Positions 21,992 through 41,261 are shown, counted from the first letter of the stretch. The stretch is DNA of 64,000 nt from an uncultured Candidatus Saccharibacteria bacterium (GCA_964436255.1 CAYTBW010000005.1:6374-70373); one strand, 5' to 3'. Translations and numbers: made by a program. The notes: generated by a model not told the origin, from the letters alone.

Positions 21992-22004
21992 GGCTAAGGT
22001 CTTA

Positions 22005-22050
22005 TTCTGCAATCTAAAAGCGCCCCTGTGGGCGCTTTTAGATTGCAGAA
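22005..22050 (+). terminator. Strong hairpin terminator after pilin gene
   Basis: TTCTGCAATCTAAAAGCGCCC-ctgt-GGGCGCTTTTAGATTGCAGAA, perfect 21-bp inverted repeat; the stem itself contains the 5' A4 and 3' T4 tracts, so it is symmetric/bidirectional. Confidence 0.7.
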
Positions 22051-22077
22051 ACATAAGAACTATACTAGAGTAGACAT

Positions 22078-23273: not shown

Positions 23274-23323
23274 CGAATTCTCGGTAGCATAAGTGGTATA
23301 ATATATCCAATTGGAAAGCATTT

Positions 23324-24040: not shown

Positions 24041-24528
24041 AGCTGAAGAATAGGCGGGGGGACACCTTGATCGAGGTTATATTTGCTTTGGCTATCTTGG
24101 CCACCATACTTACTGTGGTAACAAGCGGTGCAATTACAGCCTGGCGAACTTCGCGTGCTGCCGGTGAACGGGCGCAGGCTGCCGCTATGGCCACTGAGCA
24201 GGTGGAGGCACTAAGGTCTTATAAGCAAGCCTTGGAGTGGGGGGATTTTAGGGATACCATTCTTGGCCTCACCTCGCCTTATCATGCGGAAATTTCTGGC
24301 CTGAACGCCCTTCCCGATATGCCGTATTGGGACTTGAAGCCAGGTACTATAAACGGAGAGTTGCTCGATGCCCCACTCCCTGGTGCGATTGTAGGGCTAT
24401 CCCCAAAGAATCCGGTTACGAGCACGAGCACTTCGATCGATTTAGAAGTTACCGTTACCTGGAAGACGCTAGGTTCAAGCGTGACCAATAAGACAACGCA
24501 GCTTGTAACACTCTCGGAGAACAAGTAG
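24037..24528 (+). CDS. Minor pilin / pseudopilin
   Basis: 163 aa; RRGDTLIEVIFALAILATILTVV prepilin-like N-terminus; coupled. Confidence 0.6.
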   Translation: MKLKNRRGDTLIEVIFALAILATILTVVTSGAITAWRTSRAAGERAQAAAMATEQVEALRSYKQALEWGDFRDTILGLTSPYHAEISGLNALPDMPYWDLKPGTINGELLDAPLPGAIVGLSPKNPVTSTSTSIDLEVTVTWKTLGSSVTNKTTQLVTLSENK

Positions 24529-25091
24529 TGAAGATGCGCTGTAACGACAGAAAAGGCTTCACACTCATTGAGCTAATATTCGCCATGGCAGGCTTTAGTA
24601 TTATGCTAATTGTAGCCGTGTCTGGCTTTCTAAACGCGGTCGGGATTTATAATCAGGCTAATGTAAGTAGGGACAATCAACAGCAGGTCCGAAGGGCTAT
24701 GGAGCAGTTGGCGGGAGACATTCGTGTGGCCAAGGGCGCCACAACGAGCACTGCTGGATCCGGGACTTGGCTATGCTTAGAGGGCCTACCTAGCGGCAAC
24801 ACAGCTTACTATAGACTCAGCGGTAGCTCTGAACTGAAGCAACAAGATCTAGCACCGGGTGTTGATTGTGCCACGTTCGCTGCTGCGCCTACGGCAATCG
24901 CTGGCGATTCAGGAGTACTCCTAAACGTGAGCGCGTTTGAGCCTACCAAGCTACAACAATCCGATGCCGATGCCGGCTCCGTAAGGGTACTCATTGGGGT
25001 TCAGAGGGGGAGCGAGTCTTCGCCTCGTGCTAGGCAATTTAGCAATGCTTATGAGTTGCAGTCTACATACTTCCTGAGGGGAGGGCTGTAG
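24528..25091 (+). CDS. Minor pilin / pseudopilin
   Basis: 187 aa; RKGFTLIELIFAMAGFSIML prepilin leader; coupled. Confidence 0.65.
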   Translation: MKMRCNDRKGFTLIELIFAMAGFSIMLIVAVSGFLNAVGIYNQANVSRDNQQQVRRAMEQLAGDIRVAKGATTSTAGSGTWLCLEGLPSGNTAYYRLSGSSELKQQDLAPGVDCATFAAAPTAIAGDSGVLLNVSAFEPTKLQQSDADAGSVRVLIGVQRGSESSPRARQFSNAYELQSTYFLRGGL

Positions 25092-25092
25092 C

Positions 25093-26175
25093 ATGGCGTT
25101 AACAGCTCAGCGATTATCTGCTAGCATAAGGAGTATGAAAAACCGACTAAATACTCAAGCTGGCGGAGCTTCACTTTTAGTTACCGTAGTTCTAGCCCTT
25201 TTACTATTAGGCGTAGTTGGTGGACTTACTACGCTGTCCGTGCGTGAATTGCGCCAAGCAAGTAACACAGAGCAGTCTAATCGTGCGTTGAGCGCGGCGG
25301 AGTCATTTGTGGAACAGAAGGCAAACGAAATCGTGGTCGCTGGTAGCACAGCCTTTAACGATACGTGCAAAAACCAGAGCATCGGCGGTGCTGCGGACAA
25401 CCTCGCCATTACTTGCTACACAGTTACAAAAGGAAGGGGCGATAGCGCAGAGGCGGTACTAGATAGGGATAAGACATTCCGACTCCAGCTTGATGACGTC
25501 TCACCAGCACCCGCCAGTATGTCCATAGAGTGGCATGTAGAGTCCGACGGGAGTCTACCTGATAATTGGGCTGACTATTATGCAGGGGCCGGTTGGCCAA
25601 CCACTTTTGAAGGCGAGGGGGATGTCCCTGCTGCAATCGAGACTACCTTCGTAGCTTGGCAAAAGAGCAGCGGCAACATTGTCCCTAATGCTACTGATGG
25701 GGACTTTGGTCTGCCACTAAAGAAGTACTTAACGAAACCTGGTGGCAGCAATGGTACTACAATCCAGACTATTTGTGGTGAACCAGAAGAGGGTTATTAT
25801 TGTAGGACTTCCAGCCGCATTAATCTAGCCACTGCTACGGGCCAGCCTATTGGTAGCAATCTGGTCTTCAAAATCACTCCACGCTACAGTGGCGCCAAAG
25901 TACGGATCAAGTTTTTTGACAGTACTGGTAAGGTTATTACGATTCCGCTACCATACGCGACTATTGATGTTACTGCCCGGGCTAACAACCTATATAGACG
26001 GGTCGTAGCTACTAAAGCGCTTGATCCGACATTGGCCTATAGTCATTTAGATGGAAATGTCTTGTTCTCGGGCAAGAACATCTGCAAGACACTCATGGTT
26101 GGGAGTGACTACAATGGGGTGAATGGTGGTAATGGTACGAATGATGTAAATTGCGAGAACCCACCACCCGAATAA
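25093..26175 (+). CDS. PilX-like minor pilin / pilus tip-associated protein
   Basis: 360 aa; PilX-type N-terminal hydrophobic domain (GGASLLVTVVLALLLLGVVGGLTTLSVREL). Confidence 0.5.
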   Translation: MALTAQRLSASIRSMKNRLNTQAGGASLLVTVVLALLLLGVVGGLTTLSVRELRQASNTEQSNRALSAAESFVEQKANEIVVAGSTAFNDTCKNQSIGGAADNLAITCYTVTKGRGDSAEAVLDRDKTFRLQLDDVSPAPASMSIEWHVESDGSLPDNWADYYAGAGWPTTFEGEGDVPAAIETTFVAWQKSSGNIVPNATDGDFGLPLKKYLTKPGGSNGTTIQTICGEPEEGYYCRTSSRINLATATGQPIGSNLVFKITPRYSGAKVRIKFFDSTGKVITIPLPYATIDVTARANNLYRRVVATKALDPTLAYSHLDGNVLFSGKNICKTLMVGSDYNGVNGGNGTNDVNCENPPPE

Positions 26176-26178
26176 TAT

Positions 26179-27090
26179 TTAGCTATTATCCGAATGGAAC
26201 TTTTTATGCACGTCCTTCAGGTGCGGGTCGGTAATGTGGGTGTAAACTTGTGTTGTCGAGATGTTGGAATGTCCCAGCAGACCCTGCACGCTACGGATGT
26301 CAGCACCGTTCATAAGTAGGTCCGTGGCAAAGCTATGCCGCAGCGTGTGTGGCGTAACGTGCTTGGTTATGCCAGCTAGCTTGCTGTACTTTTCAACAAT
26401 ACGCTGAATGCTGCGAGTGGTAAGTCGGGTGTATTCGCCGCCTTCGAGCTCGCTTTTGCTACCACTAAAGTGGATAAAGAGAGGGTCGAAGTCGTCTTTT
26501 CGACCCTGCAGGTAATCTGCCAAGATTTGTGTTGCCGAATCGCTCAGGTACACCGGCCGATCTTTTTGGCCTTTACCACGCACACTGAACTCACCACGTT
26601 CTAAGTTAATGCTGTCGCGATTGAGCGCCACCAACTCGGATACACGCAGCCCGGTAGAGAACAGGAGGGCCAGGATGGCACGATCGCGCTTACCAGTTTG
26701 CGTATCAGGCTTCACGGCCTCCATGAGCCTGTGAACTTCGTCTTTGTCCAGGAAGCTTACTTGTGGCCGTTTCGCCACCGCAAGCTCTATCTTGTCAGGG
26801 CTGAGGCTGGTTATGTCACGCTTAACCAAGTAGCGTAGGAAGCTACGCATAGCAATTAGGTGGTAGTTTTGCGTAGTGCGGCTAATACTGCGCCCATCGT
26901 CGGTGACGTAGCGGTTTAGCCATTGGCGCCATTTGCTGATGGTGTCGAGGGTGATTTTATCTACCTTAATCTCACCTGTGAACTCGTCGAAGCGGTTTAG
27001 GTAATGCGAATAGTTCTCGATCGTCTTGAGGCTGCGCCCACGCTCGACCTCTAAGTATTCTAAAAAGTCACCCATGTAGTCGCTAAACAT
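26179..27090 (-). CDS. Tyrosine recombinase XerC/XerD family
   Basis: 303 aa; Xer-type motifs (R...HTLRHSFATDLLMNGADIRSVQGLLGHSNISTTQVYTH). Confidence 0.85.
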   Translation of the reverse strand: MFSDYMGDFLEYLEVERGRSLKTIENYSHYLNRFDEFTGEIKVDKITLDTISKWRQWLNRYVTDDGRSISRTTQNYHLIAMRSFLRYLVKRDITSLSPDKIELAVAKRPQVSFLDKDEVHRLMEAVKPDTQTGKRDRAILALLFSTGLRVSELVALNRDSINLERGEFSVRGKGQKDRPVYLSDSATQILADYLQGRKDDFDPLFIHFSGSKSELEGGEYTRLTTRSIQRIVEKYSKLAGITKHVTPHTLRHSFATDLLMNGADIRSVQGLLGHSNISTTQVYTHITDPHLKDVHKKFHSDNS

Positions 27091-29589: not shown

Positions 29590-29619
29590 GAAGCCCCGAG
29601 TAATCTCGGGGCTTTTGGT
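29590..29619. terminator. Bidirectional hairpin terminator between ndk and GC-rich island
   Basis: GAAGCCCCGAG-taatc-TCGGGGCTTTTGG; serves ndk (+) and the convergent minus-strand small-gene operon. Confidence 0.65.
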
Positions 29620-29653
29620 TTGCGGGACCGGTCCAGTGCCGTAATCCCGCGCT

Positions 29654-29749
29654 TCAGGTGTCGATGGATCGAAGCAGGGCTCCGATGATCAGGCCGATGA
29701 ATCGACCAATCCGGTAGGCCAGGCGCTGTGAGCATGTCTCAGGCTTCAT
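29654..29749 (-). CDS. 31-aa hydrophobic peptide, 4th gene of coupled operon
   Basis: Not in ORF track; ATG overlaps 3' end of upstream gene, AGGAAG 9 nt upstream; MKPETCSQRLAYRIGRFIGLIIGALLRSIDT single TM. Confidence 0.4.
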   Translation of the reverse strand: MKPETCSQRLAYRIGRFIGLIIGALLRSIDT

Positions 29750-30002
29750 CACGCCAGCTTCCTGGCTCACCTAGCGGTGTTCTGCCCTCAGCCTGATCGC
29801 GTTTGGCCTTGTACTCCGCGGCACCATCGAGCCCTGCCTTGGTCAGGGCATCACCGAAGTCGTATCGGCTTGGTGGTACGCGTCCTTCACGAACGGCCCT
29901 GGTCTTTGCTCTGGCTCGCTCGATCTTGCCGGGAGCCGAGCAGATCAGATCCCACCACGCTTGCGTAAAGTTCGGGTCTTTGCCTGGGTATGGCTGTGTC
30001 AT
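29739..30002 (-). CDS. 87-aa basic soluble protein, 3rd gene of coupled operon
   Basis: ATGA stop/start overlap with upstream gene; MTQPYPGKDPNF...; true start inside longer track ORF 29739..30119. Confidence 0.5.
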   Translation of the reverse strand: MTQPYPGKDPNFTQAWWDLICSAPGKIERARAKTRAVREGRVPPSRYDFGDALTKAGLDGAAEYKAKRDQAEGRTPLGEPGSWRDEA

Positions 30003-30139
30003 CGGTGCCTCGTTGCACTTGGGTTCATGACCGCATCCCATCCGTGGACCAGGGCCCACCCGGCTGCCTTGACCGAGGTGATGCCGATGGCAGCACCCAG
30101 GCCAATTGCTCCGACGCACTTCAGTCCGTTGCGGATCAT
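29999..30139 (-). CDS. 46-aa single-TM peptide with GxxxG motifs, 2nd gene of coupled operon
   Basis: GAGGAGG RBS 5 nt upstream of ATG, ATGA overlap with upstream stop; MIRNGLKCVGAIGLGAAIGITSVKAAGWALV. Confidence 0.55.
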   Translation of the reverse strand: MIRNGLKCVGAIGLGAAIGITSVKAAGWALVHGWDAVMNPSATRHR

Positions 30140-30399
30140 CGGTTCCTCCTCAGCGGACGAGTGATGAGCCACGTCAGGCCGACCGGGGTGAGCACGAAGG
30201 CAGCCCCGAGCACCTGGTCCAGGAAGTGAGGCCCTCCCTGGTACTTGACCTCCTTTGGCCGTGCCGCTTCGGCGTGCTTGCGCTTGCTCGCCAGCGCCAA
30301 GCTGACTGCGCCCGCTGCGGCCGTGAGACCGAGCGAGACTGCCGTTCCAACTGCTTTCAACGTTCCCCCTAGTGGTTCTTGCTCGTGCGCGGATCGCAC
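30136..30399 (-). CDS. 87-aa two-TM membrane protein, 1st gene of coupled operon
   Basis: GTG start; two hydrophobic helices; preceded by AT-rich promoter-like region (TTGAGA-17-AATAAT) and upstream terminator. Confidence 0.5.
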   Translation of the reverse strand: MRSAHEQEPLGGTLKAVGTAVSLGLTAAAGAVSLALASKRKHAEAARPKEVKYQGGPHFLDQVLGAAFVLTPVGLTWLITRPLRRNR

Positions 30400-30530
30400 T
30401 ATGCATGGAGGGTATTATTAAATGAACACGCAAATATCTCAAGCTTAAGTATAAAGTAAACGAAAAAACGACCTAGATATTTCTAAGTCGTTCTGGGGTG
30501 GGCCCTGCGCCACACCCCGCCGCCTGCCGG

Positions 30531-30758
30531 CTAGTGGCCGCAAGCGATGACGCCGTTGGCGTACTGGATGCAGGTCACGACCGTGTCGTGGTGTTGGCTT
30601 CGCTTTACGGCCTCTTTGATGAGGGCCACCACGAGTGTGCCAAGCCAGATGCCGATGATCATGCCGCCGATGCGAGCGAGGCTGATCTCGCCAGACTCTC
30701 CAGCTCGGGTACGACTAGCAGGTGACTTCGCGCCTTGATAGTGCGAAAAAGCTTTCAT
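30531..30758 (-). CDS. 75-aa single-TM protein with Cys-containing C-terminal tail
   Basis: Strong RBS AAGGAGAGG 8 nt before ATG (MKAFSHYQGAK...); terminator hairpin AACGACCTAGA-tat-TTCTAAGTCGTT + T-run downstream (30462-30495). Confidence 0.6.
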   Translation of the reverse strand: MKAFSHYQGAKSPASRTRAGESGEISLARIGGMIIGIWLGTLVVALIKEAVKRSQHHDTVVTCIQYANGVIACGH

Positions 30759-30787
30759 CTCATACCTCTCCTTAGTGAGCGGGCGAA

Positions 30788-30973
30788 TTATCCGTTGATG
30801 AAGTTGATGACGCCGATCGTCACGAACACGGCGAAGGCCAGGAAGAAGATCGCCGTGTAGATGTTGCTGACCTCTACTTCTTCCGGGTGGCCCTTTTTGC
30901 TCTTTCTCCGGAACTCGTACATCCAACCGAACCGGGCCGGGTACTTATAGGTACCCCATTTTGCTTTGGCCAT
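30788..30973 (-). CDS. 61-aa membrane peptide (C-terminal TM)
   Basis: RBS GAGGAGG 5 nt before ATG; MAKAKWGTYKYPARFGWMYEF...IFFLAFAVFVTIGVINFING. Confidence 0.6.
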   Translation of the reverse strand: MAKAKWGTYKYPARFGWMYEFRRKSKKGHPEEVEVSNIYTAIFFLAFAVFVTIGVINFING

Positions 30974-31088
30974 TCAGGCCTCCTCAGTGTTTGGGGCGCC
31001 ATAGGCACCATGTGCAGGAACTTGTGTATTTATAGCATGAAATTAAGATGATTACAAGGGCTAGTATGTTATCTCTACGAGACTTTAA

Positions 31089-31136
31089 TTATCACCTAAA
31101 CTCACAATGCTGGATTATGAACTTGGGTAATGCCAG
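31089..31136. repeat. Junction repeat R3, copy 1 (TTATCACCTAAACTCACAATGCTGGATTATGAACTTGGGTAATGCCAG)
   Basis: ~90% identical to 33365..33413. Confidence 0.8.
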
Positions 31137-31181
31137 GTCTCGACTGGCAACGCTGCACATTGATGCGTGCAGGACATGGGT

Positions 31182-31619
31182 TCAGCTATCAGCCGAAGTC
31201 GATTCCTCGTCAGAGGTCTTTCCTCCGGTCTTCTTCATCTCCAGTAGGGTCCTAAAGATCATGTAGCCGACGAAGAGAATCGCGATGAAGATCATGCGGA
31301 GCAGTACGACTGCTTCGTGCATGTCCTTTACCTCGACCGGTGGTGGTGCCGGTGTCACCGGCTGCAGCCAAGAGGAGCTGCTCGCAGGCGGGCAGGGCTT
31401 CCACTGTTCGGTGCCGGGCACCGGCCCTCGTGGGTCACCTGGTAGCTCGGTCGGGACTAGGGCCTTGGGCACGCATTCTGACTTGGTTGGCGGCGCGGTC
31501 GTCGTGAAGGCCTGTGTCGTTGTTGTCGACGGGGAGCCTTCGCTTGACGCCGCAGAAGCGGGTGAGCCGATCGATGCTCCGAAGAGAATGATCAGCATTA
31601 GAATCAAGATACGCCTCAC
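31182..31619 (-). CDS. Secreted Pro/Thr-rich protein with C-terminal membrane anchor
   Basis: 145 aa; GTG start 9 nt after AAGGAGG RBS; signal peptide MRRILILMLIILFGASIGSPASA, TTTT/PPP-rich linker, C-terminal TM + charged tail. Confidence 0.65.
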   Translation of the reverse strand: MRRILILMLIILFGASIGSPASAASSEGSPSTTTTQAFTTTAPPTKSECVPKALVPTELPGDPRGPVPGTEQWKPCPPASSSSWLQPVTPAPPPVEVKDMHEAVVLLRMIFIAILFVGYMIFRTLLEMKKTGGKTSDEESTSADS

Positions 31620-31623
31620 GGCG

Positions 31624-31716
31624 CCTCCTTAGGGTAGGGATGGGACAAGCTTGAAGAAGCTAGCACCCGAACGTTAGAACTAGACTATAATAGCATAAGT
31701 GTAATAAAAAGTCAAT
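31624..31716 (-). promoter_or_regulatory. Promoter/RBS cassette P1, copy 1 (TTGACT-17-TATTAT ... CCTAAGGAGG)
   Basis: Minus-strand -35 at 31710-31715, -10 at 31687-31692, RBS 31624-31631; near-identical copy at 40899..40975. Confidence 0.65.
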
Positions 31717-31746
31717 GGTACATCACGTGATTGAGATTTGGAAATC
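31717..31746. repeat. Junction repeat R4, copy 1 (GGTACATCACGTGATTGAGATTTGGAAATC)
   Basis: Matches 33336..33365, where it directly abuts R3. Confidence 0.75.
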
Positions 31747-31861
31747 TTACGAGCTCAGTTCGGCTCGTTATACGAAATGAGCCCCACGTTGCCGTGGGGC
31801 TCGAGATCAGCTTGCCCTGCTTGGTGTATCGAGGATCTCATTCACGATACGCAGTTGTTGC

Positions 31862-32482
31862 TCAGGCCTGAGCCTGCTCCTTGTCCTCGACCTGCACCAC
31901 CACGAGGGGCGGGCAGGCCTTGTTCCACCAGGCACTGAAGCGGAACTGCCGCTTCTTGTAGAGGACCCCGATGATCCAGCAGGCTCCGATGATCACCGCT
32001 ATCCCGAGGAAGTACGGCCAGGCGGCCTGCAAGAAGTTGCCGATCGCAAGGAAGGCTTCCCACAGCATGCCGTTGGAAAGCCCGGCCACGATGACGCCAA
32101 CGCCGACGAAGGGGAGTACGTAGTACCAGGGGTTGTGCTTCCGGTACTCGCCCGTGCGCGGGCTGTAGCCCTTCGGAAGGAGCATCTTGTCCGTCGGGAT
32201 GTGTGACGGCAGCTTGTCTTTCTTCTTCGTTGTCTCGGGGGTAGGTGTGTAGCCGAGGAACCATGCGATTGGCACGACCAGGATCCAGAAGAGGAGCATG
32301 ATGATGCCAAGGATCACTGACCCGATGGCCGAAGCCGGAATCATGATCCAGTAGAACTTGCAGGCCTTCGCTCCTTCGATCTTCTCGGGATCCTCCCAGA
32401 AGAAGTTGACGAACCGGTAGCGCCTGCTGTCGGTGGGGATGGTCGAGAGCCGCGTCTTGAGCTTGCTGATGGGGTGGGGCAC
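31862..32482 (-). CDS. Four-TM membrane protein
   Basis: 206 aa; GTG start with GAAAGGCGG RBS; transcribed from minus arm of bidirectional promoter P2a; stem-loop GAGCCCCACGTTGCCGTGGGGCTC downstream. Confidence 0.6.
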   Translation of the reverse strand: MPHPISKLKTRLSTIPTDSRRYRFVNFFWEDPEKIEGAKACKFYWIMIPASAIGSVILGIIMLLFWILVVPIAWFLGYTPTPETTKKKDKLPSHIPTDKMLLPKGYSPRTGEYRKHNPWYYVLPFVGVGVIVAGLSNGMLWEAFLAIGNFLQAAWPYFLGIAVIIGACWIIGVLYKKRQFRFSAWWNKACPPLVVVQVEDKEQAQA

Positions 32483-32536
32483 GATGCCGCCTTTCTTGGG
32501 TGCGTAGCTACCACGGGTTGTGGCGGCATGAACAAC

Positions 32537-32585
32537 GCATATAATACCACGAAACCTTTACAAAAGCAATAGATTATGGTAATAT
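32537..32585. promoter_or_regulatory. Bidirectional promoter cassette P2, copy a
   Basis: Plus TTTACA(32557)-17-TAATAT(32580); minus TTGCTT (comp. 32564-69)-17-TATTAT (comp. 32541-46); drives 31862..32482(-) and 32636..33067(+). Confidence 0.65.
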
Positions 32586-32635
32586 GTACCCCTGCTCTCA
32601 ACCGAAGCAGTTGAACATCACAGGAAGGGGCTACA

Positions 32636-33067
32636 ATGCCCGACGTGGAAGTGGATTATCCCGAAGGCATGCTCGACGACATCACCAACCGTCTCCGCTT
32701 CAAGCGGGACGTCAAGGGGGTGGTCGCGCGTGGCATGGACTGCATCAAGCCGCCCGAGGAAGGTGAGCCGGAGGTCATGACGCGGTACGCCGCCGATCCC
32801 GACGGCAACGTCGGCCTGCTGCTCCGTCCGTACAAGCCCGAGGACGGCAGCGACATCTGGACCCCCATCCAGGTCCGGATCAGCACCTACGCATGGCCCG
32901 ATCGCATGGCCAACCTCGATGACCGCATCTGGGACATCACCCAGGACGTGCGGCGCCTCCTCAACGTCGAGGTCGAGGAGTTCCTGGAGCGCATGTTCCC
33001 CGGCAAGACCAAGCTGGTGGCCGTTCGCTTCGACCCCAAGTTCCCCGGAGCCTGGGCCGAGGCCTGA
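32636..33067 (+). CDS. Acidic soluble protein, unknown function
   Basis: 143 aa; RBS AGGAAGGGG; high-GC codon usage; followed by hairpin + intrinsic terminator module. Confidence 0.6.
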   Translation: MPDVEVDYPEGMLDDITNRLRFKRDVKGVVARGMDCIKPPEEGEPEVMTRYAADPDGNVGLLLRPYKPEDGSDIWTPIQVRISTYAWPDRMANLDDRIWDITQDVRRLLNVEVEEFLERMFPGKTKLVAVRFDPKFPGAWAEA

Positions 33068-33089
33068 TGCTTCAAGGCCAACAAGAGGC

Positions 33090-33166
33090 GGGGTGTCTCT
33101 GGAGCCAAGAGGCTCACACCCCAAGCGCGGTTTGCACAGAAATGTGCGAGCCGCATTTTCATTTGT
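33090..33166 (+). terminator. Terminator module T1, copy a (bulged hairpin + 12-bp stem/GAAA loop/U-tract)
   Basis: GGGGTGT..GAGCC-aaga-GGCTC..ACACCCC then GCGGTTTGCACA-gaaa-TGTGCGAGCCGC-ATTTTCATTTGT. Confidence 0.7.
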
Positions 33167-33298
33167 ACCCATTAATCCCAGGAGGGTAGGTTGCTAGCGC
33201 AACCTCCGTGGCGTGCTTGGTCAAAGCGCAAGCGAACTTGCTTTTGACGCTGCGCGCGCCACTCCACCGAACCTGCGGTTCTCATCCGCCCTAAATAC

Positions 33299-33341
33299 AA
33301 AAGCCTGCTGACTACTAATGTAATCATCAGACTTTTGGTAC
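33299..33341. terminator. Bidirectional hairpin T2, copy a, plus 7-nt copy of tRNA-Arg 3' end
   Basis: AAAAGCCTGCTGA-ctactaatgtaa-TCATCAGACTTTTGG-TACA; duplicate of tRNA-Arg 3' flank at 34426..34469. Confidence 0.65.
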
Positions 33342-33413
33342 ACCACGTAATTGAGATTTGGAACTTATCACCTAAACTCACAATACTTTGATTATGAACT
33401 TAGGTAATGCCAG
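33336..33413. repeat. Junction repeats R4+R3, copy 2 (contiguous)
   Basis: GGTACACCACGTAATTGAGATTTGGAAC|TTATCACCTAAACTCACAATACTTTGATTATGAACTTAGGTAATGCCAG. Confidence 0.8.
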
Positions 33414-33438
33414 TTTTGTGGGTCTGGCAACCATTTGC

Positions 33439-33750
33439 TCAGGCGTGCGAGCGCCTGGTTGGCTTTACTTTGTCAGCGACGCCGTCTGGTCCGTAGAAGA
33501 CCAGCTTACGAAGCCGGGGATGGAAGGTGAAGTTCTCGGCCTCCAGGAACTGCTCGAGAAGTTCGCGGGACATGCCCCGGACGACCAGCTCCTCCGTTCC
33601 TCCGTACATCAGCGCCCACGTCACCTGCATGAACTCAGGTGGCCTGAAGTCGACCACGAGCTTCCAGGGGTAGGTGTCGTCATCGGGCTCGTTGAACTGC
33701 CCGGTGAGGCTGATGAGCTTGATGCCTTCAATTGCTGGGTACTCGGGCAT
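33439..33750 (-). CDS. 103-aa soluble protein, unknown function
   Basis: Strong RBS AGGAGGG 6 nt before ATG; transcribed from minus arm of P2b; preferred over overlapping plus ORF 33388..33843. Confidence 0.6.
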   Translation of the reverse strand: MPEYPAIEGIKLISLTGQFNEPDDDTYPWKLVVDFRPPEFMQVTWALMYGGTEELVVRGMSRELLEQFLEAENFTFHPRLRKLVFYGPDGVADKVKPTRRSHA

Positions 33751-33803
33751 GGCAGCCCTCCTTGTTCAGGACGGGCTAGCCGTCATTACCAACATGAGAA
33801 CCC

Positions 33804-33852
33804 GCATATAATACCACTAAACCTTTACAAATGCAATACTTAGTGGTATGAT
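33804..33852. promoter_or_regulatory. Bidirectional promoter cassette P2, copy b
   Basis: Plus TTTACA(33824)-17-TATGAT(33847); minus TTGCAT-17-TATTAT; ~90% identical to copy a. Confidence 0.65.
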
Positions 33853-33876
33853 GTGGCATCACCCAGTGGTGAAAGA

Positions 33877-34302
33877 ATGACTTCCAGAAGCGATGAAAGG
33901 GTTCTTGAGATGGTTTCAGAAGCAGCTACCTTCCTTACCTCCTCGACGGAGGTGGGCCGGATCTACGGGCAGGGGATGGACGACGAGTGCATGTTCGACA
34001 CCCTCCCTCTGTTCGGGGGTGATCACGTGATCAACGTCCGGACGCGTGGGGCTGAGGCCCAGAGCATCATGATGCCGAGGCGTACCACGCTCCTGGTGCA
34101 GCTCTTCGAGAGGCCGGACACTCTCTGGCTGGCCTCAGTAGTGCGGATCAATGGCGAATGGATGATCATGTACTCGCCGGTCTCGCTCCCAGAAGTCCTG
34201 GACGGAAGGTCTGAGGCACCCGAACTTGCCGTCGTCACAGAGCGACAGCAGGCCGAGGGGGTCACGGACGAGATGGAGCATCGACTCCGACGAGATACGT
34301 GA
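33877..34302 (+). CDS. Acidic soluble protein, unknown function
   Basis: 141 aa from ATG 33877 (track GTG start 33853 lies inside the -10 element); followed by T1 copy b. Confidence 0.55.
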   Translation: MTSRSDERVLEMVSEAATFLTSSTEVGRIYGQGMDDECMFDTLPLFGGDHVINVRTRGAEAQSIMMPRRTTLLVQLFERPDTLWLASVVRINGEWMIMYSPVSLPEVLDGRSEAPELAVVTERQQAEGVTDEMEHRLRRDT

Positions 34303-34309
34303 GTGCGGC

Positions 34310-34386
34310 GGGGTGTCTCTGGAGCCACGAGGCTCACACCCCAATCGCGGTTTGCATAGAAATGTGCAGGCCGCATTTTCATTTGT
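34310..34386 (+). terminator. Terminator module T1, copy b
   Basis: Same structure as copy a; stem substitutions remain paired via G-U/compensatory changes (GCGGTTTGCATA-gaaa-TGTGCAGGCCGC). Confidence 0.7.
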
Positions 34387-34425
34387 GCTCAAAATATACC
34401 TACGGCTCTCATCCGCCCTAAATAC

Positions 34426-34465
34426 AAAAGCCTGCTGACTACTAATGTAATCATCAGGCTTTTGG
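34426..34465. terminator. Bidirectional hairpin T2, copy b (native tRNA-Arg terminator)
   Basis: AAAAGCCTGCTGA..TCATCAGGCTTTTGG immediately 3' of tRNA-Arg on minus strand. Confidence 0.7.
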
Positions 34466-34538
34466 TACCCTGGGAGGGAATCGAACCCCCGACGCTCTCC
34501 TTAGGACGGAGACGCTCTATCCACTGAGCTACCAGGGC
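34463..34538 (-). tRNA. tRNA-Arg (anticodon CCT)
   Basis: 76-nt cloverleaf read by hand: acceptor GCCCTGG/CCAGGGT, D-arm GCTC/GAGC, anticodon stem TCTCC/GGAGA with loop GTCCTAA, T-arm GGGGG-TTCGATT-CCCTC, encoded CCA. Confidence 0.8.
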
Positions 34539-34630
34539 GTATGCTTAACTCTGCTCACTCTACAACGCCAAGGCCCTCAGTGTAAGGGCGTTCGACGCTT
34601 GTTTTCAATCCTCGGCCTACGGCCTGGGCA

Positions 34631-34653
34631 CTGAGCTACCAGGTCGTGTGATG
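34631..34653. repeat. Partial duplicate of tRNA-Arg 5' half (CACTGAGCTACCAGGTCGTGTGATGC)
   Basis: 22/24-nt match to 34522..34544, ~110 bp outside the tRNA; att/pseudo-tRNA remnant. Confidence 0.6.
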
Positions 34654-34733
34654 CTCAGTTATAAAACTAGCAGTTTCGTGACTAATCTAACAGCGTGCAG
34701 AAGTTATTATACACTAGTTATTGTCATGGGGGA

Positions 34734-34762
34734 TTGACAGAAAAGCATAAGTGTTGTATTTT
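34734..34762 (+). promoter_or_regulatory. Sigma70-type promoter (TTGACA-17-TATTTT) for Zn-ribbon gene
   Basis: Consensus -35, 17-bp spacer containing the recurring AGCATAAGTGT motif, TAGGAGG RBS downstream. Confidence 0.55.
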
Positions 34763-34794
34763 TAGGGCGTCCGCAACCTACTTAGGAGGTAGAT

Positions 34795-35484
34795 ATGGAC
34801 TGCACTAATTGCGGTGCCGCGATCCCTCCTAAGGAGGAGGAATTTGCTGGTACCTGTTATGGCTGTGGGGAATCTCTTGGCTTCCAGCCGTTCGTGAGCG
34901 AGACAGATGAAGCCCTCGATCGCCTAGAACAGCGGGTGAGGGAGGCCCGATTCCACGAGTTGGCTGGAGCCGCAGAGGTGGCCGACGACATCGAGCTTGG
35001 TGATCCTGAAGAGGGCATCGACTTCGAGGCGAATCGTCGTTCGCTGGCTGAGACTCACGAGTTTTTCGCCCCCGTACTCCCGATCTTTGGGACCGAGGAA
35101 GATGCTCGTGCCTCTGCCAGCAGGCACCCAACAGCTCGAGACGGCCAAACGCCGACAAGGGCTGTCGCCTACGAATATTATCGGGTTACCGGTAATATAA
35201 GGGGCGCGCCGACGTCGTTCTGGGTCGAGGTCTCGAGTAACGCTAAGGGTGACACCTCGGCTCGTAGCAAGTACTGCCAGTACGTCTCCGAGCAAGGGTG
35301 GAAGCTGTTCGACCGCGAAGGCCGCTTTGAGTGGCCTGAGGACCCCGCGAAGCGACACCCGGCTAAGAGGAGGTCCCTGGATGTATCAGCTTCAACCCAC
35401 GATGAACCAGACGAGTACCTGTATCGGTTGACGAGTAATTCGCCCTTGGTGTTGGGCCGTCGGGAACGGACACAAGGCACATGA
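34795..35484 (+). CDS. Zn-ribbon (CxxC...CxxC) acidic protein, unknown function
   Basis: 229 aa; RBS TAGGAGG 6 nt upstream; N-terminal CTNCG...CYGCG; GC-rich codons; hairpin terminator 35494..35532. Confidence 0.65.
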   Translation: MDCTNCGAAIPPKEEEFAGTCYGCGESLGFQPFVSETDEALDRLEQRVREARFHELAGAAEVADDIELGDPEEGIDFEANRRSLAETHEFFAPVLPIFGTEEDARASASRHPTARDGQTPTRAVAYEYYRVTGNIRGAPTSFWVEVSSNAKGDTSARSKYCQYVSEQGWKLFDREGRFEWPEDPAKRHPAKRRSLDVSASTHDEPDEYLYRLTSNSPLVLGRRERTQGT

Positions 35485-35493
35485 AGGTGCCTG

Positions 35494-35532
35494 CCCGGTT
35501 TTCTCAAAGACGAGAAGACCGGGTTCCCTTTT
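35494..35532 (+). terminator. Rho-independent terminator
   Basis: CCCGGTTTTCT-caaagacg-AGAAGACCGGG-TTCCCTTTT. Confidence 0.6.
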
Positions 35533-37323: not shown

Positions 37324-37354
37324 AAAACTCCTGGGCACACCCAGGAGTTTTTAG
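37324..37354 (+). terminator. Rho-independent terminator after PPIase gene
   Basis: AAAACTCCTGGG-tgcaca-CCCAGGAGTTTTT perfect 9-bp stem + U-tract. Confidence 0.75.
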
Positions 37355-37452
37355 TTATACGAAAATGATTACAAAAGGGTGCGCCGCTTCACCCGAGGGG
37401 AGTTTGTAACTCCTTCCTATGAGTGAAACGGCGGTGTGGTGGAGTAGCTGGG

Positions 37453-37707
37453 CTACTCGTTGCGCTTGTGCTGCCCGTGGGCCCGTGCGCGCTGGATGCA
37501 GTAACGCATCTCCCACTGGATCGGCCACAGCCAGTCACGACGCTTGCGCGGCTTCTGGATGTAGGGCTGATCCCAAGGTCCCAGGAGCCAGTAGATCACC
37601 CACATGACAGCAATCGCCGCCAAGATGAGGACCAACAGGCTTGTGGTGAGCGAGAGGTCCGCGTACCAATTTCCGATACCCTCGAGGGTATCTGTGAAAA
37701 CGCTCAA
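37453..37707 (-). CDS. 84-aa membrane protein
   Basis: TTG start, one TM helix (LLVLILAAIAVMWVIYWLL), basic C-terminus; weak RBS. Confidence 0.4.
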   Translation of the reverse strand: MSVFTDTLEGIGNWYADLSLTTSLLVLILAAIAVMWVIYWLLGPWDQPYIQKPRKRRDWLWPIQWEMRYCIQRARAHGQHKRNE

Positions 37708-37786
37708 TCTTTTCCCCTGATTCTGTTAGTGCGAGCGAGGAGAGAATCATAACAGATTCATGGCTGGTTCGCAATAGGATAAGCGT

Positions 37787-38179
37787 TCAGCCCGCGTCCC
37801 AGTAGCGAACGAAGGCTCCGCAGCTACCACAGTGAATATCGGCTTCGTGCCACATCATGCTGTAATTACGCATTTGGTGCGGTCCGGGGAAGCCACAGGC
37901 TTTGCAGCTGTTCGCAATCCTATGAGCTTCTTGGACTGGTCCAAGGTGCTCGGCGCAGTGGAGCGCACTCCCAACACCCGTGCCTTTGTTGTCACCGACT
38001 ATCTCCGCGTAGCAGTCGTGGCAGTAGCCGTAGACGGTCTTCCGGGGATCCTCCGTTGCATACATGAACGGGTAGTTCCCGTAGCCTCGGTGTACATGGG
38101 GGTCAGAATGGCCCTTCTCGCGTTCACATGTGAATTGAGCATTGTCGCCGATCGCAAAGTCACAGGTTTCTAGCTGCAT
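37787..38179 (-). CDS. Cys/His-rich putative metal-binding protein
   Basis: 130 aa; RBS TAGGAGAAT; multiple CxxC pairs (CHDC, CKAC, CGSC). Confidence 0.6.
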   Translation of the reverse strand: MQLETCDFAIGDNAQFTCEREKGHSDPHVHRGYGNYPFMYATEDPRKTVYGYCHDCYAEIVGDNKGTGVGSALHCAEHLGPVQEAHRIANSCKACGFPGPHQMRNYSMMWHEADIHCGSCGAFVRYWDAG

Positions 38180-38240
38180 CTGATTCTCCTAAGTTGTTAA
38201 GGTGCGTTTTCATTCTGCTCTTGTGACCACACGAGACATA

Positions 38241-38252
38241 GCAAAACGTTTT
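38241..38252. promoter_or_regulatory. 12-bp perfect palindrome CAAAACGTTTTG in divergent promoter region
   Basis: Centered between divergent genes 37787..38179(-) and 38285..38947(+); candidate operator for the adjacent wHTH protein. Confidence 0.35.
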
Positions 38253-38284
38253 GTACTGCTTGGCCTTGGGGTATACTTGGGCTT

Positions 38285-38947
38285 ATGCACTGGATTGAAC
38301 GCCACATACTCAAGCAACTCGCCTTTAACGACACAATGCGCTATAGCGAGCTCAAGCCCGATGCGGTAGAAGGTAATTTGTTTCAATACCACGCGCGGGT
38401 GCTAGAGAAGCAGAGTTTAATAAGTCGATCTGACGAGGGCTATAGCCTTACCGCCAAGGGTAAAGTATTCGTTGCCGATCTGAGCCAGATGAAGCAAATG
38501 GGCGTTCGTAAGTTGCCCCGTGCGGTCGTGATGATTGCGTGCAAGAATGACGCTGGGGAGTATTTGTTATTCAAGTGGCGCCGTCAACCGTACAGGGGGA
38601 TGGTGAGTCTACCGTTTGGCCGCCAGTTCTACGGTGAACCGCTCGACTGGGTGGTTAGCGAGCAGCTACGCTTAAAGACTGGTTATCAAGCTCAACTAGA
38701 GTTTATTGGCCAAGTGGACAGCATCACTTTGGATAAAGAGAGCGAGGCGGTTGATCATCTCGCGATTAGCGTATTCGAGGCTTCGGGGCTGACACGTGTC
38801 GAAACCCCCGACGGCTTAACAGGTGAAGCATTCTGGGCGCATCCGGGTATGCTGGACTCAGGCAACTGCCTGACCGGGTTTAGGGAGATTATTACGTGGC
38901 TAGGGGACCCCGGGCGAGCGCCGCTATTGAAGGTTTCGGGCTTGTAG
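38285..38947 (+). CDS. wHTH + Nudix-like domain protein (possible regulator)
   Basis: 220 aa; N-terminal winged-helix, C-terminal Nudix-fold-like segment with degenerate Nudix box (GRQFYGEPLDWVVSEQLRLKTGY). Confidence 0.45.
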   Translation: MHWIERHILKQLAFNDTMRYSELKPDAVEGNLFQYHARVLEKQSLISRSDEGYSLTAKGKVFVADLSQMKQMGVRKLPRAVVMIACKNDAGEYLLFKWRRQPYRGMVSLPFGRQFYGEPLDWVVSEQLRLKTGYQAQLEFIGQVDSITLDKESEAVDHLAISVFEASGLTRVETPDGLTGEAFWAHPGMLDSGNCLTGFREIITWLGDPGRAPLLKVSGL

Positions 38948-39075
38948 ATGAGCAGTGCTTCTAAATGGAGCTAGGTCAAGGGCAATGATCTGGGTTGACT
39001 ATTTTAAAGACAAACTGAAGGGGCCCGCCAAATCCTTTACACTTGTCGTGCTTAAGATATGGCGGGCCCCGGTGG

Positions 39076-39411
39076 TCACTTCGGAGGCCCGAACCTCCAC
39101 TCGCAGTGCAACCAGGCGGCTGTCTTGACCTCGAGTGAGAGGAGGGCTGCTCTGGCGACTTGGTATCCGGCAGGGGAGAGGTCGTACCTAGTAGCGCTCT
39201 CGCCCTTGAACTCGGTGACGATGCCGGCAGATACGCGTTTCTCGAGCAGTGGGTAAAGGGTTCCGTCTGCGACACCCGTTCGAGCCATGATCTCACGGGC
39301 GGTGATGGGCCTAACTGCTTCGATCAACGCTGCGTAGGTCTGGAGCGATTGCAGGCTCTCGTTGATGCGACGCGGCTTGCTTGGCAGCGCATCTGGTTCT
39401 TCTACGTCCAT
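39076..39411 (-). CDS. PadR-family transcriptional regulator
   Basis: 111 aa; RBS AAGGAAA; PadR winged-helix signature (ITAREIMARTGVADGTLYPLLEKRVSAGIVTEF...YDLSPAG). Confidence 0.6.
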   Translation of the reverse strand: MDVEEPDALPSKPRRINESLQSLQTYAALIEAVRPITAREIMARTGVADGTLYPLLEKRVSAGIVTEFKGESATRYDLSPAGYQVARAALLSLEVKTAAWLHCEWRFGPPK

Positions 39412-39472
39412 GCGGTTTCCTTATCCTCGATATACTTGGGTGGAGTCTCTTCTTCAAATTGCTGACGATTGG

Positions 39473-40027
39473 TCAAGCTGGCATAATCCCCGGGATACTC
39501 GTGTATGACACGTATTCGAACAGCTCGTTCCTGGTAAGGGAACTTGGGAATTGATCGAATCCAAGGATGGTGACCTTGATGTCCGATAGGGCAAGGATCT
39601 CCAGGATGGCATTGAATCGCTTGCCGTCGTTCGACGCCAAAACAATCTCGGCAACTCGATCTTGTCTGACGAAGTAGTCGATACATTCGACGATGTCTTC
39701 ATCGACATCGCTGTCTTCGGTGGTGCGCACTTTTGAATACACCCGATAGCCGAGCTTTTTCATAGTCATGACCCACCCGAGCTGCTTGAGGCTCGCATCT
39801 GGGTCGATTGGGCGGTTGACGAAGATCTTGGCGTAAAGCGTGCAGCCTTGCGCGGATGACTTCTCGCGTAGCCACTTCATCAGCATGTCCAGGCGCATGC
39901 GTTCGTTCGCTCTTGGGGCTCTTTCTCCCAGAGTCAAGCCGAAGCTTGCATCGACGTTTGGAGCATCCATTACGAATACAACGAGCTTTTTGCGTGTTGG
40001 CTTGCGGCGTTTCCTTGGTTCAGGCAA
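39473..40027 (-). CDS. NYN/LabA-like (PIN-fold) putative RNase
   Basis: 184 aa; TTG start; NYN motifs VVFVMDAPNV ... IVLASNDGKRF (lvSgDgDF-like). Confidence 0.55.
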   Translation of the reverse strand: MPEPRKRRKPTRKKLVVFVMDAPNVDASFGLTLGERAPRANERMRLDMLMKWLREKSSAQGCTLYAKIFVNRPIDPDASLKQLGWVMTMKKLGYRVYSKVRTTEDSDVDEDIVECIDYFVRQDRVAEIVLASNDGKRFNAILEILALSDIKVTILGFDQFPSSLTRNELFEYVSYTSIPGIMPA

Positions 40028-40136
40028 GGGCCGAACCTTTCATTTCAAGGAGCATATACTGCTCATGGATAGGAACAGCAAAATTATGACACTAAACACA
40101 GGAAACTACAACCACATTGTCTAGTAAATGAAGGGC

Positions 40137-40185
40137 CCCCGGCAGAGCTCCTTCTGGGTAGAAGGGTTGCCCTGCCGGGGGCGTA
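40137..40185 (-). terminator. Hairpin terminator after 40190..40756 gene
   Basis: CCCCCGGCAG-[loop with inner CCTTCT/AGAAGG hairpin]-CTGCCGGGGG. Confidence 0.5.
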
Positions 40186-40189
40186 GTTG

Positions 40190-40756
40190 TCATCGCTCGT
40201 CGAGCGGGTAGTTCCTCTCGTCGAGCGGGTCGTAGCGGCTCTCATCGAAGTCGTACCGGTCGAGGTCGGCCCGGTAGGCCGTCTCCGACCGGTAGGCATC
40301 GAAGGTGTCTTCGATGATCCCACGGATGGCCGCGATGGCCTCGTCCTCGCTGTCACACTTGATGACTTCGCGGTGGTTGCAGTACTGGTTGACCGTCCCC
40401 TTGACGCCGACGAGCAGCGCCTCGTTGTGGCCCAGCACATGCTTGTCGACACCGATGCCGCGGTCCCAGACGTCCATGAAGAGGCGGACGTTGATGGACG
40501 CTGGGTCGAGCGAGTAGCTCGACCTGAAGCGATCGGTGCAGCCACTTGGGCGCCAGTAGGCCTCACGGATGGCGTCAACCTTGCCCCAGGGGATGCGGTC
40601 GAACTCATCCGGCCACAGTTCCTGGGTGTAGATGAAGGTCGACCCGTTCGCTCGAGTGCCCTCCTGGTCGGCCCGGACGGAGGTTGCCGTCTCGAGCTTC
40701 TCGCGGATGACTCGCTCGAAGAGTGCGTAGGTGTTCGGGTCGATGTTGGTCTGCAT
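40190..40756 (-). CDS. 188-aa protein with acidic C-terminal repeats, unknown function
   Basis: ATG at 40756 with AAGGAGCAACACC RBS; overlapping track ORFs 40084..40950(-) and 40187..40972(+) judged spurious GC-rich frames. Confidence 0.6.
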   Translation of the reverse strand: MQTNIDPNTYALFERVIREKLETATSVRADQEGTRANGSTFIYTQELWPDEFDRIPWGKVDAIREAYWRPSGCTDRFRSSYSLDPASINVRLFMDVWDRGIGVDKHVLGHNEALLVGVKGTVNQYCNHREVIKCDSEDEAIAAIRGIIEDTFDAYRSETAYRADLDRYDFDESRYDPLDERNYPLDER

Positions 40757-40853
40757 GGTGTTGCTCCTTGCGAAGTAGGTACGGTTGCCCGTACCAGTTC
40801 GAAGGAACACACCCTGGTGTTCAGGTACGGGAGAGAAGGGTGGGGCCGTAGCC
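40757..40853 (-). promoter_or_regulatory. Leader with mutually exclusive hairpins (possible attenuator)
   Basis: CCCGTACC (1) / GGTACGGG (2) / CCGTACC (3): 1:2 and 2:3 pairings are alternative; between 14-aa leader ORF and main gene. Confidence 0.3.
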
Positions 40854-40898
40854 CTACGCTTGTCGCTCCTGTTCCCGAATGGTGTAACGGTACTTCAT
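40854..40898 (-). CDS. 14-aa leader peptide MKYRYTIREQERQA
   Basis: AAGGAGG RBS 7 nt upstream of ATG, directly after P1 promoter copy 2; not in ORF track. Confidence 0.35.
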   Translation of the reverse strand: MKYRYTIREQERQA

Positions 40899-40975
40899 GC
40901 CCCACCTCCTTAGGTAGACTTGAGGGACGTGATGAGGTGTATAATAGCATAAGTATAATAAAAAGTCAATAGCCC
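40899..40975 (-). promoter_or_regulatory. Promoter/RBS cassette P1, copy 2 (TTGACT-17-TATTAT ... CCTAAGGAGG)
   Basis: Minus -35 at comp. 40954-40959, -10 at comp. 40931-40936; near-identical to 31624..31716. Confidence 0.65.
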
Positions 40976-41034
40976 GGCATTCATACAAAGTAAAAACCCC
41001 ACTTATTGAGTGAGGCTCTTACTTTGGCGGGCCC

Positions 41035-41056
41035 GACCGTGGATTACTATAGGTAT
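41035..41056. repeat. Partial direct repeat of tRNA-Asp 3' end (TTGGCGGGCCCGACCG-T-GGATT)
   Basis: 16-nt exact match to comp. of tRNA-Asp 3' end at 41185..41200, ~130 bp away; att-site-like remnant. Confidence 0.65.
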
Positions 41057-41184
41057 AATTTCCTCACATGCTCGAAGCTAGGAGGTAGCTTCTGCGCGTG
41101 CTCGTCATTATCGAACCGCGGTAACGAATAGCGAGCTGGCGCTCACCCAAGAAAAAACACCGAGGCAAGCTCAGTGTCTTTTCT

Positions 41185-41261
41185 TGGCGGGCCCGACCGG
41201 ATTCGAACCGGCGATCTCCTCCGTGACAGGGAGGCATGTTAGGCCTCTACACCACGGGCCC
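41185..41261 (-). tRNA. tRNA-Asp (anticodon GTC)
   Basis: 77 nt; acceptor GGGCCCG/CGGGCCC, anticodon stem CCTCC/GGAGG with loop CTGTCAC, T-loop GGTTCGAATCC, encoded CCA. Confidence 0.8.

Follow-up and report, generated by a model that had tools for sequence, protein, structure and literature searches.

A proposed array of exchangeable moron-like cassettes with shared regulatory modules beside a tRNA-Arg gene in a Saccharibacteria genome

The window, a 64,000-nucleotide stretch of DNA from an uncultured Candidatus Saccharibacteria bacterium (GCA_964436255.1, CAYTBW010000005.1:6374-70373; coordinates count from its first letter), carries two tandem units of small open reading frames (ORFs), here called a and b, that are bounded on one side by a backbone promoter, P1, and on the other by the 3' end of a tRNA-Arg(CCT) gene. 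It is proposed, with a probability of roughly 0.7, that the two units form an array of moron-like cassettes whose conserved regulatory modules double as recombination arms. Each unit is built from a 3' module (D7, D12/D11 or a terminator hairpin), a leftward ORF, a predicted divergent promoter of about 50 bp termed D3, a rightward ORF, a hairpin and terminator block termed D1 and finally D2, a bidirectional hairpin predicted also to terminate tRNA-Arg. Recombination within the modules would replace single ORFs, re-pair left and right ORFs, add or remove units and move cargo between species, and at the level of genome comparison the outcomes of such exchange (replacement, re-pairing, gain or loss of units, and transfer) are evident. 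A sequence-only reading of the window had already described a cassette-style array; the reused blocks on which it was based are borne out, but it had missed the adjacency to tRNA-Arg, the identity of D2 as the tRNA terminator and the TGGTAC hexamers that bound the units.

A repeat search of 31000-35500 together with BLAST, in which 30900-34800 was queried against the whole window, recovers the repeats of the sequence-only reading at the positions it had given or a few bases off. The promoter block D3 occurs at 32536-32587 and 33803-33854 (52 nt, 85% identity, E = 1.4e-8), D1 at 33087-33171 and 34307-34391 (85 nt, 92%, E = 1e-23) and D2, the second hairpin, at 33271-33341 and 34398-34468 (71 nt, 96%, E = 5e-21). 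Between D1a and D2a lies a 99-nt insert, ins99 (33172-33270, plus strand), which is structured (fold z = -3.6) and present in unit a only. Two further modules had gone unlisted: D7, with copies at 31716-31743 and 33336-33363 that are 93% identical, and D12/D11, found at 31089-31151 and again at 33365-33431. On its left side unit a ends in D7a, which is on the plus strand and begins with TGGTAC. Unit b has in this position the composite of D7b, D12, D11 and a short hairpin (33336-33433, plus strand), which is at the same time the 3' flank of the leftward gene G103.

Four cargo ORFs occupy the positions between the modules. In unit a these are E206 (31862-32482, minus strand), a multi-pass membrane protein of 206 aa with a GTG start and a G+C content at third codon positions (GC3) of 0.88, and F143 (32636-33067, plus strand), an acidic soluble protein of 143 aa with a GC3 of 0.89. 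Downstream of E206 lies an intrinsic-terminator-like hairpin (31779-31802, minus strand) that also follows the E206 orthologues of two related loci, L021 and L035. Unit b comprises G103 (33439-33750, minus strand), an acidic protein of 103 aa with a GC3 of 0.80, and H141 (33877-34302, plus strand), of 141 aa with a GC3 of 0.73-0.76. The true start of H141 is likely to be at 33910, giving a protein of 130 aa, because its homologues begin at M12. The four ORFs are unrelated to one another, as had been claimed: paralogy, which the sequence-only reading had named as the outcome that would refute it, was looked for with BLASTP and profile-profile comparison and none was found, the best BLASTP values being E = 0.24-1.1 and the hhalign probability 0.9%.

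This result also bears on a rival history, in which a plain segmental duplication copied one unit in tandem and the ORFs then became too different to be recognised as related. The identical order of modules in both units is what a duplication would produce, but global nucleotide identity is 87-96% for the modules and 41-55% for the ORFs, the latter being the random level, and the boundaries between the two regimes are sharp (the BLAST range for the blocks being 85-96%). The leftward ORFs moreover differ in length (206 versus 103 aa) and in class (membrane versus soluble), the predicted secondary structures of the rightward ones differ (F143 alpha/beta, H141 all-beta, both from low-confidence models), and each ORF has its own orthologues elsewhere with other partners. 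A plain duplication is thus very unlikely.

The cargo ORFs are, to judge by dN/dS values of 0.11-0.19 for H141, 0.35 for E206 and 0.5 for F143, real coding genes under purifying selection. Neither those of the window nor those of other species have a significant family in Pfam, PHROGs, PADLOC or NCBIfam, and E206 has no Pfam match above its cut-off. Among 5.8 billion proteins F143 has only six related protein clusters and H141 only four, and every examined contig with a relative of either bears the same locus. The E206 family is wider, with about 70 representatives, and has no family name; its orthologues in L021 and L035 share 68-77% aa identity. One distant member of this family sits elsewhere, beside a Fic-domain gene, and its GC3 is also raised. 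The AlphaFold2 models of F143 and H141, which derive from shallow alignments, have mean confidence scores (pLDDT) of 65 and 55, too weak for fold assignment, and a Foldseek search of the F143 model against the PDB returned nothing below E = 0.29. In composition the cargo is foreign-like: GC3 is 0.71-0.89 in the window compared with 0.41-0.62 (median 0.56) for its other long ORFs, and over all species (L001, L003, L019, L021, L022, L031, L035 and the window) it is 0.65-0.89 compared with 0.41-0.62 for housekeeping genes. An Actinobacterial origin of the cargo was considered, but the relatives of F143 and H141 are confined to this locus and no donor came to light.

Evidence that the modules frame exchangeable genes comes from related genomes, which were gathered by exact-protein and homologue look-up, yielding the same locus from about eight lineages onto which the modules were then mapped. 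The suggestion of the sequence-only reading that other genomes be searched for the same scaffold is answered by these relatives, since Saccharibacteria of other lineages hold different ORFs in the same sockets. Three loci (L001, L002 and L008) match the window except that 33411-33792, which contains G103, is swapped for an unrelated ORF of 115 aa, and L003 has another ORF of 103 aa, designated 103', at the G103 position. Five loci (L019, L031, L035, L021 and L022) have a single unit in which the modules and their order agree with those of the window, namely D7/D12/D11, leftward ORF, D3, rightward ORF, D1, an 85-nt spacer and tRNA-Arg. Protein comparison sorts the slot ORFs into five leftward alleles (E206, G103, 103', 115 and 84) and three rightward alleles (F143, H141 and 260), which are observed in nine pairings: E206-F143, E206-260aa, G103-H141, G103-F143, G103-260aa, 103'-261aa, 103'-H141, 115-H141 and 84-H130. 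G103 is found with all three rightward alleles, and its orthologue in L031, which is 90% identical in aa sequence, has a different partner from that in the window. Because of these nine pairings the left and right genes can be said to assort independently around D3.

Independent assortment also speaks against the idea that the divergent pairs are toxin-antitoxin or effector-immunity systems and the array an immunity or defence islet, one of the options that the sequence-only reading had offered. The proteins are small, fast-evolving and often acidic or membrane-bound and lie in a variable islet, as would suit such systems, and the Fic-domain neighbour of the distant E206 relative points the same way. 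Partners of a toxin-antitoxin or effector-immunity pair would be expected together, but here they are not co-inherited, with nine pairings drawn from 5 x 3 alleles; furthermore, the searches of Pfam, PHROGs, PADLOC and NCBIfam gave no toxin, immunity or defence family, and there is no fold match. This option has accordingly been dropped as improbable.

The breakpoints of replacement and crossover fall inside the modules or at their edges, which upholds the earlier description of cassette-style swapping of unrelated ORFs. L010 has hybrid modules in which D7 changes from a-type to b-type and D3 from b-type to a-type, in each case within 13-15 identical nt; the former crossover lies inside the segment that corresponds to D7a and, in unit b, to 33336-33433. 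The second crossover in that segment is that of L011, where the locus switches inside D12 from its own backbone to unit b of the window across 15 exact nt held in common. The ORF replacements of the L001 type and of L003 are delimited by D11 and D3. The second unit of L003 (11930-12063; MAG_140, NCBI JBPOIL010000004.1) ends with D2 and TGGTAG and continues into unrelated sequence, not tRNA-Arg, which could mean that a third unit follows, that the region has been rearranged or that the contig is faulty.

Since the window is probably a metagenome-assembled genome (MAG) or other metagenome product, and short Logan contigs stop in the repeats, it has to be asked whether collapsed or chimeric repeats could have produced the arrangement. 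Such an artefact is hardly credible. Both units, in the same tandem order, are covered by L007, a JGI contig from a separate assembly with 99.96% identity over 32173-34555, L001-L004 span the region in contigs of 11-430 kb, and the arrangement is reproduced in independent JGI, NCBI, ENA and Logan assemblies. The repeats cannot have been collapsed because their copies differ at 4-15% of positions, and no assembler k-mer is as short as the exact matches at the variant junctions; the L011 junction, with just 15 nt shared, is not an assembly chimera at k=31.

The cargo is recently exchanged between species, as far as divergence can tell. Unit b of L011 is 99.7% identical to that of the window, compared with 76% for mnmG of the same contig. 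For F143 the synonymous divergence (dS) is 0.22 between the window and L017/L021, compared with 1.76 for mnmG between the window and L011, whose backbone is 95% identical to that of L021, and for H141 it is 0.115 compared with 0.60 for mnmG between the window and L003; dS of such strongly GC3-biased genes may be underestimated, but the contrast with mnmG is large. Across species D1 is 90-97.5% identical, the adjoining spacer 77-88% and the tRNA 100%, while unrelated cargo is at the random level. As the modules are conserved both within the array and between species, they could act as short portable homology arms.

In addition to serving as arms, the modules would provide the signals at which transcription of any ORF placed between them starts and stops. 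A scan for promoters and terminators found 14 promoter-like sites compared with 3.7 +/- 2.1 in shuffled sequences. D3 is palindromic and is predicted to be a divergent promoter whose two extended -10 boxes stand back to back and face outward; an inverted repeat in D3b pairs 33805-33820 with 33840-33855. On the plus strand both copies are near consensus, with TTTACA, a 17-nt spacing, TAATAT or TATGAT and an extended TG. The minus strand has a good extended -10 element, TGGTATTAT, but its -35 element matches at just three of six positions, so the earlier claim of consensus elements on both strands is overstated. The D3 core, ATAATACCAC-N-AAACCTTTACAAA-N-GCAATA, is kept in 12 variants from about eight lineages.

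Downstream of the rightward ORFs, D1 folds as two hairpins (z = -5.35 and -4.23), the second of which is followed by the T-run ATTTTCATTT; in D1a hairpin 1 occupies 33090-33122 and the predicted intrinsic terminator 33127-33154, and D1b, likewise on the plus strand, was recognised by repeat search, promoter and terminator scan and folding as the same combination. The terminator stems of the two copies differ at three positions with all 12 pairs retained, as checked by hand. Every difference does remain paired, as had been claimed, but the changes are one-sided G-U wobbles and not compensatory; among ten distinct copies no pair of this stem is altered on both sides, which is why a covariation test on D1 is uninformative about RNA structure. 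For D2 a hairpin is predicted on either strand (z = -4.3 to -5.9), and D2b, which adjoins the 3' end of tRNA-Arg, is predicted from its folding to be able to terminate the tRNA transcript.

Hairpin 1, a 33-nt element (GGGGTGTCTCTGGAGCCANGAGGCTCACACCCC), follows the rightward cargo ORFs immediately and is an imperfect hairpin that has a bulge of 5 nt. In 15 distinct copies all 12 stem pairs (12/12) are invariant, and variation is limited to loop base 2 and the 5-nt bulge. This invariance, without covariation, suggests that hairpin 1 is recognised by a sequence-specific ligand. The element occurs once or twice per genome. An exact-pattern scan with it retrieved one metagenome contig and four genomes, each a Candidatus Saccharibacteria/Saccharimonadia or Patescibacteria MAG. 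In Rfam only tRNAs were matched, whether at the gathering or at a permissive threshold, with nothing for D1, D2, ins99 or hairpin 1. In two more distant Saccharibacteria (L018 4068-4733 and L020 1-1699) hairpin 1 is joined to a different terminator with which it closes cassettes that are flanked by direct repeats of 83-88 nt with P1-like promoters, three copies of which lie within 1.7 kb of L020. D7 and P1 of the window, read on the minus strand, are homologous to this direct repeat.

A conserved, bulged hairpin directly behind cargo genes invites comparison with integrons, in which case hairpin 1 would be an attC-like folded site at which a Xer-family recombinase inserts cassettes. The invariance and low copy number of hairpin 1, its linkage to two different terminators by lineage and a XerC/D-like gene in conserved synteny fit such capture, and in Bacteroidales the rAID-1 arrays join a XerD-family recombinase with intergenic repeats and skewed GC content (10.1101/471110). 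The nearest tyrosine recombinase of the window (26179-27090), which lies 4.6 kb from the array, scores 145 bits compared with the integron-integrase cut-off of 265 bits and is best matched by XerC/XerD. Between it and the array lie mnmG, ndk and six ORFs of the backbone, it is equally present beside an empty site in a relative, and no recombinase domain was detected by domain-library scans in any ORF between ndk and tRNA-Arg. The cassettes also have their own promoters and face both ways, the leftward ORFs are without hairpin 1, no GTTRRRY core is seen on inspection of D1 or D2, and the observed breakpoints lie away from hairpin 1. Integron-like capture is consequently given little credence, and the sequence-only reading, which had argued against an integron from the internal promoters, is supported on integrase, cassette form and orientation alike.

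The position of the array relative to tRNA-Arg(CCT) (34463-34538, minus strand), which anchors it and is 100% identical in all related species, is exact. The terminal GTACCA of the tRNA, read as TGGTAC on the plus strand, is found at three boundaries: at 31716 on the left of unit a, at 33336 on the junction of a and b, and at 34463 on the tRNA end. D2a, which ends in TGGTAC, is a copy of the downstream flank of tRNA-Arg together with the last 6 nt of the tRNA. In L037 the site is empty, with P1 abutting tRNA-Arg (...GTCAATAGAA|TGGTAC|CCTGGG) and no D7, D3 or D1, and in L019 a 12-nt direct repeat, AAGTGCTGGTAC, stands at both ends of the single unit. Two features of tRNA-targeted islands, insertion at the 3' end of a tRNA and an empty site in a relative, are thus both present. 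Since the array sits exactly at the terminal hexamer of the tRNA, the first insertion may have been site-specific.

The same junctions allow a rival account, in which the units are small non-autonomous integrative elements, such as cis-mobilisable elements (CIMEs) or satellites, that a remote tyrosine integrase has inserted serially at the tRNA-Arg 3' end with TGGTAC as the core. The exact placement of the array, the hexamer at all three unit boundaries, the nature of D2a, the direct repeat of L019 and the unoccupied site of L037 can all be accommodated, and the tRNA-Asp gene of the same window has a classic 16-nt att-like duplication. What makes serial insertion doubtful, though still a serious possibility, is that no integrase is encoded within the units or beside them, the XerC/D-like gene being present at the empty site too, and that a 20-nt search allowing up to three mismatches found no longer copy of the tRNA-Arg 3' end in the window. 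In L011 and L021 the boundary hexamer is degenerate, reading TGGACC, and the known crossovers (L010, L011, L001 and L003) lie in D7, D12, D3 and ORF edges, not in the hexamer. In addition D7 and P1 resemble the promoter-upstream repeat of distant relatives, so that the hexamer of D7 may be inherited promoter sequence.

If, as preferred here, exchange proceeds through the modules, the likely route would be the uptake of DNA by competent cells followed by recombination anchored on the modules and the identical tRNA gene. Natural competence and homologous recombination have been demonstrated in cultivated Saccharibacteria (PMC10633639), which makes this route plausible. Several points weigh against the proposal as a whole. 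The identity tracts at the crossovers, at 13-30 nt, are short for RecA-type recombination, so that a dedicated recombinase could be involved instead. The comparison sequences are mostly short metagenome contigs or MAGs, and the bias in GC3 tempers the dS values given above. The modules could be conserved because their function constrains them, because exchange homogenises them or for both reasons, and promoter and terminator activity is predicted from consensus matching and folding.

A bolder and rather unlikely version holds that hairpin 1, the D3 core and the tRNA hexamer are the recognition sites of a dedicated factor encoded elsewhere, and that the locus represents a new gene-capture and expression platform of the Candidate Phyla Radiation (CPR) that could draw high-GC cargo from Actinobacteria hosts or their mobile elements. 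If this were true, it would be an integron-like platform whose sockets give each captured ORF a promoter and a terminator.

The surroundings of the array are chromosomal, with a pilin cluster, the XerC/D-like recombinase, mnmG, ndk, a PpiC-type isomerase and RNA polymerase subunits (rpoB/C). No phage genes were found at the locus in a PHROGs scan, the whole array has no match in phage or plasmid records, and D1, D2 and D3 have zero matches in viral contigs. The window has a GC content of about 49%, rising to 54-60% in the stretch of 29.6-35.5 kb. On the left flank of the array P1 (31640-31715, minus strand; TTGACT, 17 nt, TATTAT in the promoter scan) is predicted to drive an ORF of 145 aa for a secreted or anchored protein (31182-31619), and 31686-31716 recurs at 40940-40970 with 97% identity. 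The 145-aa ORF is the last of six small, mostly membrane-protein ORFs of raised GC content between ndk and the array (29600-31620; 87, 46, 87, 75, 61 and 145 aa), which are 30-78% identical in aa sequence in other species, the one with the empty site included. They are a vertically inherited, fast-evolving backbone distinct from the swappable units.

On the other side of tRNA-Arg a zinc-ribbon protein (34795-35484) evolves very fast, with about 30% identity between species whose MnmG is 81% identical, and its promoter (34734-34762) has AGCATAAGTGT in common with P1. A 22-nt copy of the tRNA-Arg 5' end lies at 34629-34650, about 90 nt upstream of the gene, with a counterpart in L021 (3844-3860), and could be what is left of another tRNA or the trace of an old rearrangement. 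Copies of ins99 occur in L003 (~11755-11870), L031 (6889-6978) and L035 (13441-13526, minus strand); they lie at other positions than in the window, that of L035 between tRNA-Gly and tRNA-Thr, and ins99 may be a small mobile structured element. The 3' end of the tRNA-Asp gene (41185-41261, minus strand) is repeated exactly, over 16 nt, only 160 nt away (41024-41039 and 41184-41199), which looks like an att-type duplication. Beside it a high-GC island (37330-41180) carries the second copy of the P1 sequence and varies between strains, L001 and L002 being without 39096-40125, which contains a winged-helix ORF and an NYN-domain ORF. Immediately upstream of the XerC/D-like gene, pilin-like genes and a prepilin peptidase form a cluster (21563-26175) that may have a bearing on DNA uptake, these bacteria being naturally competent.

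Saccharibacteria live as obligate epibionts and have genomes of about 1 Mb (PMC10633639), and how organisms with this lifestyle and genome size gain and test new genes is for that reason an open question. The locus resembles a built-in landing pad, in which fixed sockets next to a conserved tRNA hold rapidly exchanged, lineage-restricted genes that are under selection. It extends the phage idea of regulatory cassettes that double as recombination arms to a cellular genome. In practical terms it offers a small pool of candidate genes for host interaction or niche adaptation, native promoter, terminator and homology parts for the engineering of naturally competent Saccharibacteria and, with the invariant hairpin, a concrete handle for finding a putative binding factor.

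A literature search for a described cassette locus of Saccharibacteria yielded nothing specific, and the array is best placed by comparison with systems from other organisms. Like an integron it is a fixed site that gathers small unrelated ORFs with a hairpin-forming element, but it has no IntI, attI or Pc, its genes have their own promoters and mixed orientation, and its hairpin is conserved in sequence and not in structure alone. Islands linked to tRNA genes can grow by the tandem accretion of integrase-less elements, as in CIMEs and arrays of the tycheposon type (10.1101/2020.12.28.424599 for tycheposons). The array shares with these the tRNA 3' end, tandem units, a short repeat of the tRNA end at the boundaries and an empty site in a relative; it differs in that the repeat is 6 nt (12 in one species), no integrase is present, the units measure 1.1-1.6 kb and most exchange points fall inside them. 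A phage moron is an ORF that lies between genes of a phage and brings its own promoter and terminator. Each cargo ORF is similarly predicted to be an autonomous unit of foreign composition bracketed by promoter and terminator, but the locus is not in a prophage, and its brackets are reused and conserved while the ORFs are exchanged within fixed sockets. The rAID-1 (recombinase-associated acquired interbacterial defence) loci are orphan-immunity arrays of Bacteroidales (Ross et al., 10.1101/471110) that resemble the array in their small genes, skewed GC content, repetitive intergenic sequences and a Xer-family recombinase in the neighbourhood. Here the recombinase is neither adjacent nor tracks occupancy, the cargo lacks similarity to immunity genes, and the genes are divergent and not co-oriented as in rAID-1.

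Gene-swapping sites of the kind proposed here for a cellular chromosome have so far been described mainly in T4-type phages, where promoter-early stem-loop (PeSL) cassettes (Arbiol et al. 2010, PMC2839356; Comeau et al. 2014, PMC4122927) form mini-circles by exchange between neighbouring motifs. In both systems short conserved promoter and terminator motifs flank small non-essential ORFans in a hyperplastic region, and the motifs are at once expression signals, as predicted for the array, and points of exchange between unrelated sequences. As in PeSL, close relatives differ by indels and replacements whose breakpoints lie in the motifs, here D7, D3 and D12. The array differs in its location on a Saccharibacteria chromosome by a tRNA gene and not in the hyperplastic region of a T4-like phage. 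It also differs in its design, for PeSL is one composite motif of a stem-loop terminator and a strong sigma-70-like promoter whereas the array has separate modules, with the palindromic D3 at the centre, the terminators outermost and an additional invariant hairpin of 33 nt.

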